Source of the DNA: Escherichia phage RCIP0363
Sequence record: PV464739.1
Reading direction: 5' to 3' (one strand)
DNA: 64,000 nt
In this document: positions 38,902 to 43,519 of the stretch, one piece after another
Layout: the number at the start of each line of letters is the position of its first letter
How positions within the stretch are numbered: position 1 is the stretch's first letter
Translations under genes and position numbers: made by a program
Notes under the pieces: model-generated
Told to the model about the DNA's origin: nothing
Databases searched by the model: none
Seen by the model: only the letters and a program-made list of their open reading frames with translations

Positions 38902-39453
38902 TTATACAGTGTACGGAGTACCGTCTTGATTCAACCGCACGATGAACTTAAGGTCGACGCCGATGATTTCGCGCGTATCAAAGATCACATAGTTGTAACG
39001 ACGCTGACCAGCAATATTTGGGTTGGTGTGAGAGTCGGTCACAACTTCCTGCGCAACCTGAATGCCTTCTTCTTTAAAGAACTTGCGCCATTCAGCAAGT
39101 TCAGCGGCAGTCACGTGCATACCAAAATGGCTAACCTGATTGTCGTGCGCATCAATATATTCGATGTTTTCGTTAATCCAGTTGCAGCCCATTGTGTAGT
39201 CAAGGATTTCAAGCTCAAGAGGCTTACCAGCGCCGCCATCGGTGCCGTTGCCAGCTTGATAGTTGAATCGCAAGTCAGCTTCGTTGGTGCAATCGTCGCG
39301 ACGACCTTTAAAGTCATCAGCTTCAAATACGCGACCAGTAGCAACAACATGATCATGGAACCATTCTGTCAGGCCGATTTTAGCCAGAAAATCCTGTGCA
39401 CGCTGAGCATCTGGAATTGACAGGGCGATTTGTTCAATTTTAAAGTGCGGCAT
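38902..39453 (-). CDS. VOC-family (glyoxalase / dioxygenase-like) protein
   Basis: 183 aa; N-terminal pattern FKIEQIALSIPDAQRAQDFLAKIGL and spaced His/Glu residues fit the VOC fold; assignment by recall only. Confidence 0.45.
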   Translation of the reverse strand: MPHFKIEQIALSIPDAQRAQDFLAKIGLTEWFHDHVVATGRVFEADDFKGRRDDCTNEADLRFNYQAGNGTDGGAGKPLELEILDYTMGCNWINENIEYIDAHDNQVSHFGMHVTAAELAEWRKFFKEEGIQVAQEVVTDSHTNPNIAGQRRYNYVIFDTREIIGVDLKFIVRLNQDGTPYTV

Positions 39454-39549
39454 TTTGTTTCCTTAATTAAATATTATTGATTAATTACTGTGTTGTCTTC
39501 GTCCTGTTTCTTTTCAGGAGCGGGTGTGACAACTTAAAATGTTCGTGAT

Positions 39550-40233
39550 TTATTTACCAAATGGAATATCAGTGCCAGACATAAAGCGCCATGCGCCCGT
39601 AATTAAGATATGGCGAATGAAGTCGGCAATTACTTGCGGCTCAGTCTCCAATCCATTCATCAATGCCTTTTTCTGGTATTCAGCAGCGTATTCAGGAGTC
39701 CAGCCGCGAGTCGCACAAACGGCATCTTCAATCTGTTTAGACATGCCAGTGCCGCGTAGCTTGTTAGGACTAATAGAGAATACCGTGATCCCGTATTTAG
39801 GCGTAAGCTCGTGAGCCATCTGCTTGCTAATCATGAGCGCAGCAGCCTTGGAAGCATTATAACACAAGCTGGACGTCATAGGAATATGCGCAGCGTTGGA
39901 AACGATGTTGATCACAAAACCTTTGTTGTCAATAAGACTTTTCAGCGCGGCCTGAGTCGTGTTGACGAAAGAGAAGGCGTTGGTGTGCATAACGCGATTG
40001 AACTCTTCGTAGTTAACATCTTCGAACCAGTTGTTGGAGTTGACGCCAGCGCAGTTGATCAAGCCTTCTACGTCGTATTGAGAGAGAAGCTCTTTCATCT
40101 GTTTCGCGTTACGGATGTCATAGCCGTTCTCCAAATCAATACCGACAACTTCATGACCGTAAGCGCCAAGGGTGTCAAAAATGGATTTACCAAGACCGGA
40201 ATTGCAGCCAGTTACAACAATTACTTTTTTCAT
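39550..40233 (-). CDS. Short-chain dehydrogenase/reductase (SDR)
   Basis: Cofactor motif VTGCNSGLGK and catalytic YNASKAA (YxxxK). Confidence 0.75.
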   Translation of the reverse strand: MKKVIVVTGCNSGLGKSIFDTLGAYGHEVVGIDLENGYDIRNAKQMKELLSQYDVEGLINCAGVNSNNWFEDVNYEEFNRVMHTNAFSFVNTTQAALKSLIDNKGFVINIVSNAAHIPMTSSLCYNASKAAALMISKQMAHELTPKYGITVFSISPNKLRGTGMSKQIEDAVCATRGWTPEYAAEYQKKALMNGLETEPQVIADFIRHILITGAWRFMSGTDIPFGK

Positions 40234-40298
40234 TTATTTATCCTTTTTGGACTTCGTTTCGATGAGATAAATATAACTCATCGAAACGCACAAGTAAA

Positions 40299-41171
40299 CT
40301 ATTTATTGAAATTAATATTATGGGTGTTAACAAGACGTTCACACATGGCGCTGTAAACACCATCATCGTGTATAGAGTCTTCGTGCTTCAGGCCGCTGAT
40401 TGCGAAGCGTGTAAGCTTGACAATCTTAAGTTCGAACAGATGCCACATGTGGTAGTCTTCCGGCGTTTTCAACGTTACGCCATTAGGGAAAAGCACCTGC
40501 ATAACCTGGCCTACCATCACAGCGTTATCGCCATAGACAGCGTTGCGCTCACGGAAGGTTGCTGCCATTGCATCAAGAATATCGGCGGCAGTTGCCGGAG
40601 ATTGTTCAATTTCCACAGCCTTAGTCTCTTCTTGCCCAGTTGCGCTTGGATCAATTGCTAATTGTTGCACCACTTCACCTGCCTTGCAAAGATTAAATGT
40701 AAAAGCGATTTTATTTTGAGCAACGGAATTATAATACAATGCTTCATCTTGCATCCGCGCGAGTACGTCTTGTCGGTCGTCGAATACATTTATGATTCGA
40801 TAATCGCCGTGCCGCAATGCGGCCGATAGCCATGCAGATTTCATAATAGTTGATGGACGTTTGTCGCCAGAGTCTCTCATCTTGATTTTAAATTCATCAA
40901 AAGGGAAAACATTGTCCAGACGTTCAAAAGTCACTTGTCTGTATTTTTCTGGCCTTGCAGTCCAATATTCAACCGCCTCACCGCGAAGAGATGCCGACTC
41001 TACTGCTGATGCAATGTGAGGATAGAACTGATCATAACCAATACCGCTGTGATAGTCATCATAGTCTGACAACGGACCTGCCACCTTGATGCGGTCTAAG
41101 CGCCAACGGTCATCAAACAGCGTTCCGTCAAGGTCGAATACGTTTAAGATTTCGCTGTTTTTAATGCTCAT
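40299..41171 (-). CDS. HAD-family phosphatase fused to a C-terminal domain of unknown function
   Basis: HAD motif I VFDLDGTLFDD at the N-terminus; ~120-aa C-terminal domain without a recognised catalytic motif. Confidence 0.55.
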   Translation of the reverse strand: MSIKNSEILNVFDLDGTLFDDRWRLDRIKVAGPLSDYDDYHSGIGYDQFYPHIASAVESASLRGEAVEYWTARPEKYRQVTFERLDNVFPFDEFKIKMRDSGDKRPSTIMKSAWLSAALRHGDYRIINVFDDRQDVLARMQDEALYYNSVAQNKIAFTFNLCKAGEVVQQLAIDPSATGQEETKAVEIEQSPATAADILDAMAATFRERNAVYGDNAVMVGQVMQVLFPNGVTLKTPEDYHMWHLFELKIVKLTRFAISGLKHEDSIHDDGVYSAMCERLVNTHNINFNK

Positions 41172-41998: not shown

Positions 41999-42011
41999 TT
42001 TAATTATCCTA

Positions 42012-42458
42012 TTAACGGTAATTCACTAGTTGCTGATCACCAGAGAAGGTGCAATGATAAACGAATTGTGCGTTATAAAGCAACTGAAAACTTTTCTTTG
42101 GTTCATTATTAGAACTCATTGATGTAAAGATTTCTGCACCAGAACGGTTTTCACCAATCAGATTGATAAAGCCGCCAGTTGAACGAGGCTGGACGAAAGT
42201 GAAACGTTGCATCCACGGAGTACGGTTGGCACCTTTCCCTGTGAATCCCTGAATCTGAATATTCAGACCTTCTTGCTCATTCACACCGATGTAAGTGGTA
42301 ATCTTCGCACCAGTCGTTGCTGCGGTCTTACCGTCCATCGCTTCGCAATCATAAACAGCGATTGAATCGGAAGTACGGATGGCAGCTTCAGTCGCTTCCA
42401 TATACATGGTGCCGAGAATAGCAGTTGCGGCAAGCGCGATTCCAGTGATTCGTTTCAT
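42012..42458 (-). CDS. Secreted protein of unknown function
   Basis: Signal-peptide-like MKRITGIALAATAILGTMYMEATEA; two Cys residues in the mature part. Confidence 0.5.
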   Translation of the reverse strand: MKRITGIALAATAILGTMYMEATEAAIRTSDSIAVYDCEAMDGKTAATTGAKITTYIGVNEQEGLNIQIQGFTGKGANRTPWMQRFTFVQPRSTGGFINLIGENRSGAEIFTSMSSNNEPKKSFQLLYNAQFVYHCTFSGDQQLVNYR

Positions 42459-42523
42459 TTTCGTTTCCTCTATGAGTTCTGCTTCAATGATTAAAGTATA
42501 CGCCCATTGAAGCAGAAAGCAAA

Positions 42524-43519
42524 TTATTTATTAGCAATATAAGCAAATTTTTGATAGTTATTTGCTTTGATGAGTTTTTCAACTTCAACAAGGTCATGGG
42601 CAACGTCATCAAGCAAGATGTTGCGCCAGGTAGCAAATCGACCGACACTGAACACGTTCAAATCCATAGTCAGCTGCAGGAGTAGGGCGTGTCGCAAGTC
42701 TTTCGGAATGTCGACAATCTTGCCATATTTCTGGTCGACCTTTTCAACTTCTTCAAGAGCGATGTCACTCCATGAGAGGCCAAAGGCTGTCAACACTTCG
42801 TCGACTTCTGCGCGCAGCTTCATGTCACGGTAACGAGTGATGCCGCCAGCGGCTTCAACTGCAGCTTCACTCACGCTGACCAAAGGAATTGTTTCAATGA
42901 TAAGCGTGTCACCAGTAATTGATGCGCGGTAAGTTCTGACGGAGTAGTCAGGGAAGTAAATTGTCTGATACAAATCACACTTACGTTTAATCTTAAAGCG
43001 GTAAACGCGAATGTTTGCTTTATCAAATGAGAAATCAAGCTTTTGATCAATCCCAGCAAGCTTCATCATTACTGGCAGCGGCGACGTGTTGATGATTGGC
43101 GTCTCGCTATAGCCGCAAAGAGTATCAACCGGAGTATTAAAGAATATGCGGTCACCCAGTTTGTCGACAAGCTGATCATAAAAGTCATCAGGCGCAATAT
43201 AACGCGTTGCAGTCTTAAGCTTCATGATTGAACGGCTGCCAAATTGATTGGTGACCTTCATGGAATACATATTGGCAAGGTTGATTGGGCAATGGTCGTG
43301 ATAGTAGTTGCCGCGAAAATACACAGCCTTGTCAACTGTCACGGCCTTAAAAGGGATTCCGGTAATACGGCTTACTTCTTCGCCGCGAAAGCGTAGCAGC
43401 GCCTTGTGCTGTTGCGCTCGTTCCCCTGCTTCGTACACAATAGAGTTCGGGAAGTGACACGCGGTGATAAGTCCTGCCAATCCGCCGCCGATAATCATTA
43501 CAGGTTGTTTCATGTTCAT
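42524..43519 (-). CDS. FAD/NAD(P)-binding oxidoreductase
   Basis: N-terminal dinucleotide-binding motif MIIGGGLAGL. Confidence 0.6.
   Translation of the reverse strand: MNMKQPVMIIGGGLAGLITACHFPNSIVYEAGERAQQHKALLRFRGEEVSRITGIPFKAVTVDKAVYFRGNYYHDHCPINLANMYSMKVTNQFGSRSIMKLKTATRYIAPDDFYDQLVDKLGDRIFFNTPVDTLCGYSETPIINTSPLPVMMKLAGIDQKLDFSFDKANIRVYRFKIKRKCDLYQTIYFPDYSVRTYRASITGDTLIIETIPLVSVSEAAVEAAGGITRYRDMKLRAEVDEVLTAFGLSWSDIALEEVEKVDQKYGKIVDIPKDLRHALLLQLTMDLNVFSVGRFATWRNILLDDVAHDLVEVEKLIKANNYQKFAYIANK

Follow-up and report, generated by a model that had tools for sequence, protein, structure and literature searches.

A gene cluster at positions 38902-43519 of the sequence examined here, a 64,000-nucleotide stretch (the window) from Escherichia phage RCIP0363 (PV464739.1), is a candidate thymidine-hypermodification operon of a new type. 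It combines a ThyX-family enzyme with a flavoprotein that has the fold of UDP-galactopyranose mutase (UGM), and Pbunavirus has it too, as do, in part, many other phages that encode a DnaE replicase. Five of its genes, encoding the flavoprotein, the ThyX-like protein, a HAD phosphatase fused to a DUF6378-like domain, a short-chain dehydrogenase/reductase (SDR) and a VOC (glyoxalase-fold)-like protein, most likely make a sugar-bearing thymidine that replaces T in TG contexts and shields the DNA from restriction. By analogy, this product would be the counterpart of the hypermodified thymidine of the Pbunavirus phages F8 and 14-1; we put the probability at roughly 0.6 on both counts. A preliminary description, made from the letters and open reading frames alone, had proposed base modification or another auxiliary pathway rather than plain dTMP synthesis. 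Base modification is the best-supported reading, given the residue losses, the conserved module, the Pbunavirus thymidine, the restriction resistance and the sparing of TG, although all of this evidence is indirect.

Two sets of published observations bear on this reading. LC-MS (liquid chromatography coupled to mass spectrometry) of F8 and 14-1 virion DNA showed that nucleosides of 362 and 390 Da take the place of about one quarter of T, at TG; they were interpreted as derivatives of a sugar alcohol and of a pentose (Yee et al., bioRxiv 2025, PMC12191111). F8 virion DNA resists restriction enzymes with TG-containing sites and is cut by EcoRI; Pbunavirus-type phages are without known modification genes, and the authors left the biosynthetic genes unassigned (PMC12191111). 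The second set concerns the genus to which the window belongs. The window is ~98% identical to phage FEC19 (genus Wifcevirus) and collinear with nearly the entire genome of Bas99, and the 8 kb around the cluster show 94-98% identity to 28 Escherichia/Shigella Wifcevirus myoviruses, including FEC19, WFH, Mansfield and Bas98-101 of the BASEL collection. In the BASEL study Bas98-101 resisted all tested defences including restriction systems, with the exception of EcoP1_I (AGACC), and no known mechanism accounts for this restriction resistance. In the literature that we searched, no paper connects the genes of the cluster with the Pbunavirus modification or with Wifcevirus resistance.

Judged by its sequence, the ThyX-like protein is a non-standard ThyX. 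It matches Pfam Thy1 (PF02511) with E=2e-29, far above the cut-off of 24.8 bits (Table 1), scores 78.9 bits with the NCBIfam thyX equivalog (TIGR02170), below the cut-off of 87.9, and reaches only E~1e-3 against the sequences of solved ThyX structures in the PDB. Residues were mapped by comparing a 32-member subfamily alignment (A3), as a profile, with solved structures, and are numbered as in T. maritima ThyX. The dUMP-binding residues Q75, R78, R80, E86, R90, R147 and R174 are all kept, as are N163 and R165, and R78, R80, R90, R147, R165 and R174 are invariant across the 32 sequences. In contrast, His53 is replaced by Ile48, which is invariant in the subfamily, and Tyr91 by Ala87, the distant members having Ile, Val or Phe. 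In ThyX, H53 is a conserved histidine that pi-stacks with the folate pterin, and Y91 is a conserved tyrosine whose mutants carry out the methylation half-reaction 1000-fold more slowly (2025 structural study, PMC11940539). Nucleotide binding thus looks intact, but the same does not hold for folate binding and some of the catalytic apparatus. Further changes are His51 to Asp, His79 to Thr75, Ser88 to Thr84 and His178 to Arg. The ThyX motif RHR-x7-S is not found: the protein reads RTR-TGAYQER-TS where T. maritima ThyX reads RHR-IASYNEL-SG, and the subfamily motif is R[TNQ]R-x7-[TS]. This deviation is what the preliminary description had singled out. It is present, but it is the mildest of the changes, and the losses of His53 and Tyr91 matter more.

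Moreover, the subfamily has an extra C-terminal extension of ~60 residues carrying C221, C227 and C237; these and the core residue C188 are nearly invariant. The two homologs without the extension lack the whole set of four, and gp78 of mycobacteriophage Hawkeye has a matching LCT...C-x6-C-x10-C pattern. We predict that the four-cysteine set forms a metal site. Residues ~95-130, between conserved nucleotide-binding motifs, are variable and constitute the main difference among Wifcevirus alleles of 257 to 281 aa.

The distribution of the five genes indicates that they are a conserved module beside the DnaE replicase gene. A count over 50,697 phage records gives 361 with the flavoprotein, 363 with the ThyX subfamily (at a coverage of at least 80%) and 363 with the DUF6378-like domain, and the three agree in their numbers for the main genera (Pseudomonas 292, Escherichia 26, Serratia 9). 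The recurrent order is flavoprotein, ThyX, HAD, (SDR, VOC), exonuclease, DnaE. It can be found in the Pbunavirus phages phiKTN6, F8 and 14-1, in Serratia phage MyoSmar and a metagenomic relative (44% identity), in the 42-kb Cronobacter podovirus Ss1 and, more loosely, in 206-kb Rhizobium jumbo phages. In Pbunavirus the genes for the flavoprotein (~40% identity), the ThyX-like protein (~49%) and a HAD-DUF6378 protein keep this order next to those for the exonuclease and DnaE. Part of the set also occurs in actinophages. Genes 55-59 of Microbacterium phage TinyMiny (4782-8098 of the stretch examined) encode a small Rossmann flavoprotein, a HAD protein, an SDR, a VOC protein and a stand-alone DUF6378-like protein beside DnaE, with matches to the SDR (E=2e-24), VOC (8e-17) and DUF6378-like (1e-16) sequences of the window. 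In Mycobacterium phage Hawkeye a comparable set, with a Cys-type ThyX in addition, likewise adjoins DnaE (1512-10053 of the stretch examined). The actinophage flavoprotein family occurs in 126 phage records; hhalign comparison of these 'oxidoreductases' (TinyMiny gp55, Hawkeye gp70) with the Wifcevirus flavoprotein gave probabilities of 50-58%, with just the N-terminal GxGxxG and the C-terminal GR[FY]xxW aligned.

The modification reported in Pbunavirus lies at TG, and avoidance of palindromes offers a way to look for the same context in Wifcevirus. Sites with a modified TG need no purging from a genome, whereas unprotected sites do. All 64 palindromic hexamers were compared with a dinucleotide Markov expectation, words below 0.25x were scored as depleted, and those with TG (= CA), a motif chosen a priori, were set against the remainder in a one-sided Fisher test. 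In the window none of the 16 words with TG/CA is depleted, compared with 20 of the 48 without (17 of them absent; p=8.5e-4). Within the class of words with four G/C the contrast is 0/8 against 12/16 (p=6.7e-4), and there TG/CA alone is significant among the ten dinucleotide classes. The window avoids palindromes to an extreme degree: the wholly absent words (17 of 64) include the BamHI, KpnI, SacI, XhoI, SmaI, NheI, BglII and PvuI sites; GATC is observed 106 times against ~260 expected, and CTAG 31 times against ~130. MyoSmar (50 kb), which carries the module, gave 1/16 versus 16/48 (p=0.029; four-G/C class 0/8 versus 10/16, p=0.004), and the unrelated podovirus Ss1, which carries the flavoprotein, ThyX and HAD trio, gave 0/16 versus 20/48 (p=8.5e-4; 0/8 versus 8/16, p=0.0175). 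F8 (53 kb, trio) leaned the same way, with 1/16 versus 13/48 (p=0.075) and 1/8 versus 7/16 (p=0.14). Two phages without the module, T7 (8/16 versus 25/48, p=0.56; four-G/C class 7/8 versus 12/16) and T1 (7/16 versus 16/48, p=0.85; 6/8 versus 8/16), gave no such result. The signal is absent from Hawkeye, which shows nearly no palindrome avoidance, and the test is therefore without power there. These statistics, on 64 words per genome, tie the module to protection of TG contexts in three or more lineages. Avoidance of sites was also considered as the cause of EcoRI/EcoRV resistance and rejected: the two sites, neither of which contains TG, occur 15 and 6 times in the window and 19 and 4 times in Bas99.

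The flavoprotein is UGM-fold, though not demonstrably a UGM. UGM (Glf) is its best structural match by two methods, and its model has the UGM-type three-domain flavoprotein fold. The two proteins share the N-terminal GxGxxG and a C-terminal GR-x-x-x-[WY]-[RK], but the phage protein has neither a Pfam GLF match nor a significant profile match that would place it among UGMs by sequence. Indeed, it matches nothing in Pfam or NCBIfam, and PHROGs places it in phrog_4828, a family of unknown function; a sequence search of the PDB found nothing, and the best E that the family profile reached there was 0.095, to an unrelated protein. The N-terminal IIGGGLAGL is invariant across the family, which has 1954 detectable members, the best 120 of them mostly on contigs of phage-genome size. 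Many Arg and Lys residues are likewise invariant, which fits an anionic substrate. In UGM, flavin N5 acts as a nucleophile on sugar C1, giving a covalent flavin-N5 adduct.

The HAD protein (phrog_4889 in PHROGs) carries FDLDGT (DxDGT) and matches Pfam HAD_PNKP (PF25109) at 34.9 bits against a cut-off of 27.6. Profile comparison of its HAD domain identified Pnkp1 (E=1.2e-6) and T4 Pnk (E=2.8e-6), and a Foldseek search with the two-domain model returned HAD matches only, headed by the T4 Pnkp 3'-phosphatase (5uj0). There is no kinase domain or P-loop in the 290 residues, and the database name 'polynucleotide kinase/phosphorylase' is therefore misleading. The extra C-terminal domain that had been described for this protein is indeed there. 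It comprises ~100 DUF6378-like residues, forms four helices in the AF2 model (pLDDT 86) and is conserved more strongly than the HAD domain; DUF6378 is weakly matched by 18 of 32 members of the HAD family, and no solved structure in the PDB matches the domain. A MazG-like NTP pyrophosphatase was tried as the identity of this four-helix bundle and rejected as unsupported, profile comparison with the phage's own MazG-like protein giving a probability of 0.7%. In Ss1 the HAD phosphatase of the module is fused instead to DUF3310 (orf32, 7561-8241 of the stretch examined; E=4e-9), which suggests that DUF3310 and DUF6378-like domains are interchangeable helical partners of the phosphatase. Of the large proteins in this region, HAD-DUF6378 differs most between F8 and 14-1 (80.8% identity; F8 5772-6836, 14-1 5940-6956 of the stretches examined), while polymerase, ThyX, flavoprotein and Dda helicase are 94-99% identical. 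The HAD-DUF6378 protein may influence which side chain is made, although this divergence is not decisive.

The SDR is of the classical type, with TGCNSGLG (TGxxxGxG), YNASK (YxxxK) and NxAG. Named NCBIfam models give at best 60-84 bits against cut-offs of 215-360, polyol-dehydrogenase and FabG models scoring alike, and the PDB yields generic FabG-type matches only. An Asp at the end of beta-2 suggests a preference for NAD(H). For its neighbour, the VOC fold assigned in the preliminary description is weakly supported: the Mansfield record cites an InterPro glyoxalase-fold domain (IPR029068), the Pfam Glyoxalase_4 match (E=3.5e-3) falls short of the cut-off of 27 bits, and a sequence search of the PDB gave no match. 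The VOC-like protein occurs in 54 phage records whose taxa are identical to those of the close SDR homologs. It invariably accompanies the SDR: both are present in Wifcevirus and in the Serratia, Erwinia, Pantoea, Xanthomonas, Xylella, Luteibacter and Aeromonas relatives, and in TinyMiny the VOC gene neighbours the SDR gene; among the phage records searched, Pbunavirus has close homologs of neither.

The sixth gene of the cluster had been described as encoding a secreted protein. Its N-terminus, MKR followed by ITGIALAATAILGTMYM and EATEAA, does resemble a Sec signal peptide when read by eye, but the gene lies outside the module. It has no Pfam, PHROG or NCBIfam match, is confined to 28 Wifcevirus records and is missing from the otherwise collinear metagenomic relative, where the FAD and Thy1 genes adjoin. 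It is a Wifcevirus-specific insertion that probably takes no part in the pathway, and its product may be a periplasmic or exclusion protein.

All six minus-strand ORFs of the preliminary description are present in the window, and the motifs quoted for them can be read from the translations (Table 1). The cluster reads as a discrete unit bracketed by two strong terminator-like hairpins. The Mansfield record annotates a terminator at the position of the upstream one, and both the Mansfield and the MyoSmar records annotate one at the position of the downstream one. Between the upstream terminator and the first gene sits a candidate promoter that matches 8 of 12 positions, below the threshold of the promoter scan, and a ribosome-binding site (AAAGGA) is found at 43522-43527. 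The ThyX-like gene shares 4 nt with the HAD gene. Only 96 bp (39454-39549) separate the VOC gene from the SDR gene, and in Mansfield, Bas99 and MyoSmar this gap holds an ORF of 56-71 aa; this small ORF is thus dispensable or has been lost in the RCIP0363 isolate.

Table 1. Features of the cluster and a possible accessory gene (positions are those of the window)
Feature	Position	Strand	Remarks
VOC (glyoxalase-fold)-like protein, 183 aa	38902-39453	-	Glyoxalase_4 18 bits, below cut-off
Classical SDR, 227 aa	39550-40233	-	adh_short E=1e-31
HAD phosphatase-DUF6378-like fusion, 290 aa	40299-41171	-	HAD_PNKP; residues 1-175 HAD, ~190-285 DUF6378-like
ThyX-like flavoenzyme, 276 aa	41168-41998	-	Pfam Thy1 103 bits
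ORF with signal-peptide-like N-terminus, 148 aa	42012-42458	-	no family match
UGM / protoporphyrinogen-oxidase / amine-oxidase-fold flavoprotein, 331 aa	42524-43519	-	phrog_4828; N-terminal GxGxxG, C-terminal GRFATWRN..LLDD
Intrinsic-terminator-like hairpin, 5' boundary of cluster	43604..43624	-	GACCCACA-cttgt-TGTGGGTC then TTTTTT; closes upstream gene
Intrinsic-terminator-like hairpin, 3' boundary of cluster	38866..38885	-	GGCCGTCC-taat-GGGCGGCC then TTTTT; just ahead of exonuclease and DnaE genes
Candidate weak sigma-70-like promoter	43544..43572	-	TTGCTG, 17-nt spacer, TATACT; read by eye
MazG-like pyrophosphatase	30501..31094	-	7.8 kb downstream of cluster, adjoins DNA ligase gene; weak Pfam MazG E=5e-3

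Directly upstream of the cluster (43652-44497, minus strand) lies the gene for a 281-aa Lys/Ala/Glu-rich low-complexity protein (phrog_4765). Some Wifcevirus records name it 'TolA protein', and its positional equivalent in Pbunavirus phiKTN6 goes under 'structural protein'. The MazG-like protein is annotated also in Bas99, F8 (gp049) and MyoSmar (gp047). It is a possible accessory that edits the dNTP pool together with the cluster, for example by removal of dTTP or dUTP, and its membership of the pathway is uncertain. Besides ligase, the MazG-like protein, helicases, primases, exonuclease and DnaE, no further enzyme gene was identified in the genome, in which small ORFs were not exhaustively searched. 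Unannotated small ORFs make up over half of it, and ten of the largest had no enzymatic Pfam match.

How might the five proteins work together? From the gene content, residue changes, folds, co-occurrence and TG-sparing signature observed above we infer the following chemical steps, including whether each acts on the nucleotide or on DNA. The ThyX-like flavoenzyme would bind dUMP but, being without the folate-stacking His and the catalytic Tyr, would not carry out ordinary folate-dependent reductive methylation. Instead it may yield a C5-activated deoxyuridylate, either an exocyclic-methylene-type intermediate trapped by water or a sugar hydroxyl, or a C5 alkylated by a sugar carbon. In ThyX-type flavin chemistry such an exocyclic methylene is open to capture by nucleophiles (Lee et al., PMC8989533). 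The UGM-fold flavoprotein would supply or activate the sugar, possibly through a flavin-N5 sugar-C1 adduct akin to the one-carbon chemistry of ThyX. The Pnkp-type HAD phosphatase would then take phosphate off a sugar-phosphate side chain or a nucleotide intermediate, possibly on DNA, with a role for the DUF6378-like domain that looks essential. Finally, the SDR and the VOC-like protein may tailor the side chain by keto-reduction and enediol-type isomerisation; Pbunavirus, which has neither, would therefore carry a different side chain.

A more specific scheme can be put forward as speculation, and we consider it unlikely. Here the ThyX-like enzyme would be no folate-dependent methylase, and together with the UGM-fold flavoprotein it would couple C1 of an aldose (phosphate) directly with C5 of dUMP by way of flavin-N5 iminium chemistry, or a sugar hydroxyl would trap the exocyclic methylene; the phosphatase would afterwards remove the sugar phosphate, leaving a C- or O-linked polyol-thymidine. 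Were an aldose to take the place of the folate one-carbon unit, C-C-linked 1-deoxypentityl and 1-deoxyketohexosyl groups would be expected. The masses agree: dU (228) less H plus 1-deoxypentityl C5H11O4 (135) gives 362, the F8 nucleoside, and dU less H plus 1-deoxy-ketohexosyl C6H11O5 (163) gives 390, the 14-1 nucleoside. However, ethers of 5-hydroxymethyl-dU with a tetritol or a pentose fit both masses equally well.

Several points weigh against hypermodification by the cluster. The case for Wifcevirus is built wholly from relatives and from sequence statistics. The palindrome signal comes from 64 words per genome, is weaker in F8, where the modification is proven, and is absent in Hawkeye. 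Much of the co-occurrence comes from a single large lineage of viruses, in which a replication module could have been passed on vertically. The EcoRI and EcoRV sites of Bas99 are free of TG and yet the phage is reported resistant, and modification at TG only is thus not the whole explanation. A TG-specific pattern needs a sequence-reading step on DNA, and no DNA-recognition domain can be recognised in the five proteins, while the intact 5'-phosphate-binding arginines of the ThyX-like protein suggest a mononucleotide substrate. Moreover, since Pbunavirus does without SDR and VOC, neither is required for modification as such.

The rival that survives best, though we regard it as unlikely, is ordinary nucleotide supply: a divergent but working ThyX would feed DnaE, with the SDR as a FolM/PTR1-like pteridine/dihydrofolate reductase, the HAD protein as a nucleotidase and the flavoprotein as a redox helper for the ThyX flavin. 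The ThyX-like protein lies well over the Pfam gathering cut-off and just 9 bits under that of NCBIfam, its PHROG family is labelled 'thymidylate synthase', and all its nucleotide-binding arginines are conserved. It may be an active thymidylate synthase whose folate site is a variant one. The cluster lies within the replication module, and the recurrence of ThyX and SDR together in many phages would fit a folate link; an SDR beside ThyX could be a FolM/PTR1-type pteridine reductase. A redox role for the flavoprotein finds some support in PDB titles that show eukaryotic UGM-NAD(P)H complexes; some eukaryotic UGMs bind NAD(P)H directly. Against this, His53 and Tyr91 are both lost and the equivalog cut-off is missed. 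The ThyX reaction gives tetrahydrofolate, hence there is no need of a dihydrofolate reductase, and the host has its own ThyA. This reading leaves a UGM-fold protein, a Pnkp-type phosphatase-DUF6378 fusion and a VOC protein without a role in dTMP synthesis, and both the TG-sparing avoidance and the modified thymidine of Pbunavirus would be left unexplained.

It is less probable still that the modification or TG protection is real but made by other, unannotated small genes, the cluster serving auxiliary metabolism on a non-DNA substrate such as a host nucleotide sugar or polyol phosphate. The UGM fold, SDR, VOC and a sugar-phosphatase-like HAD are typical of sugar metabolism, the wealth of unannotated small ORFs leaves room for other genes, and the cluster has no DNA-recognition domain. 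However, at the centre of the operon stands a thymidylate-synthase-family enzyme with intact dUMP residues, translationally coupled to the HAD gene. The cluster always adjoins a DNA polymerase, the closest relatives of the HAD domain act on nucleic-acid 3'-phosphates, and no other enzyme-sized candidate was found by Pfam among ten of the largest unannotated ORFs. Very improbable, lastly, is a mosaic of functionally unrelated accessory genes: a genus-specific 148-aa ORF is inserted into the operon, small ORFs between the genes vary from phage to phage and Pbunavirus is without the SDR and VOC genes, but gene order is kept in myoviruses, a podovirus and jumbo phages and, to some extent, in actinophage siphoviruses, the record counts of three proteins are near-identical, the terminators bracket exactly the unit, and start and stop codons overlap.

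If thymidine hypermodification is indeed the function of the cluster, it would be the first route to DNA hypermodification in which a ThyX-family enzyme and a flavoprotein of the UGM fold take the place of a ThyA-type hydroxymethylase and a kinase. Two large families, phrog_4828 and that of the DUF6378-like domain, would gain a function, and it would make the names 'thymidylate synthase', 'polynucleotide kinase' and 'FabG-like reductase' misleading on hundreds of phage genomes. The cluster supplies a concrete gene set for the hypermodified thymidine of Pbunavirus, a group widely used in Pseudomonas therapy, to which no genes had been assigned. Moreover, it extends the question to a genus of E. 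coli phages with K-12-compatible isolates (BASEL Bas98-101) whose restriction resistance is unexplained. Should the joining of an aldose to C5 prove true, it would be a class of reaction new to ThyX enzymes and part of a widespread DnaE-linked DNA-modification module of phages of Proteobacteria, possibly also of Actinobacteria. The TG-sparing palindrome test is itself a cheap, sequence-only flag for context-specific DNA modification in phages.

Comparison with known systems places the cluster closest to Pbunavirus. The TG motif reported for the hypermodified thymidine of F8 and 14-1 agrees with the TG-sparing signature of the window, but these phages, unlike Wifcevirus, are without SDR and VOC genes, and EcoRI cuts the DNA of F8, whereas in vivo resistance to this enzyme is reported for Wifcevirus. 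The hypermodification pathways of ViI, M6, PaMx11, SP10 and PhiW-14 (Lee et al. 2018; 2021, PMC8989533) resemble the proposed one in that a thymidylate-synthase-type enzyme starts the pathway, nucleophiles are added to an exocyclic methylene, and a bulky C5 group on some thymidines blocks restriction. They start, however, with a ThyA-family dUMP hydroxymethyltransferase. The preliminary description had invoked such hydroxymethylases as a precedent, but these enzymes belong to the ThyA family, whereas the only thymidylate-synthase-like gene of the window is of the ThyX family. Pathways of this kind also use a 5-hmdU DNA kinase and an aGPT-Pplase, and append amino acids or polyamines. Neither enzyme is annotated in Bas99 or detected by Pfam in the ten largest unannotated ORFs, small ORFs not having been exhaustively searched. 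In the Wifcevirus cluster, unlike those pathways, no kinase is found, two flavoproteins are present, and the adduct in relatives is a sugar.

At the level of single proteins, T4 Pnkp is, with Pnkp1, the closest relative of the HAD domain in sequence and structure and shares DxDGT, but T4 Pnkp has a P-loop kinase domain where the phage protein has the DUF6378-like four-helix domain fused. Canonical ThyX (T. maritima, M. tuberculosis; PF02511, TIGR02170) has in common with the phage protein the Thy1 domain, the R-x-R..R motif, the dUMP-holding arginines and glutamate, and N163/R165; the phage protein departs from it in His53 to Ile, His79 to Thr, Ser88 to Thr, Tyr91 to Ala and His178 to Arg, and in its four-cysteine extension. 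A precedent for recruitment of the ThyX family to a C5-modified pyrimidine nucleotide beyond dTMP supply is PolB, a ThyX paralog that serves polyoxin biosynthesis. This enzyme has kept folate-dependent methylation, of UMP and dUMP, whereas the phage ThyX-like protein has lost the folate-stacking histidine.

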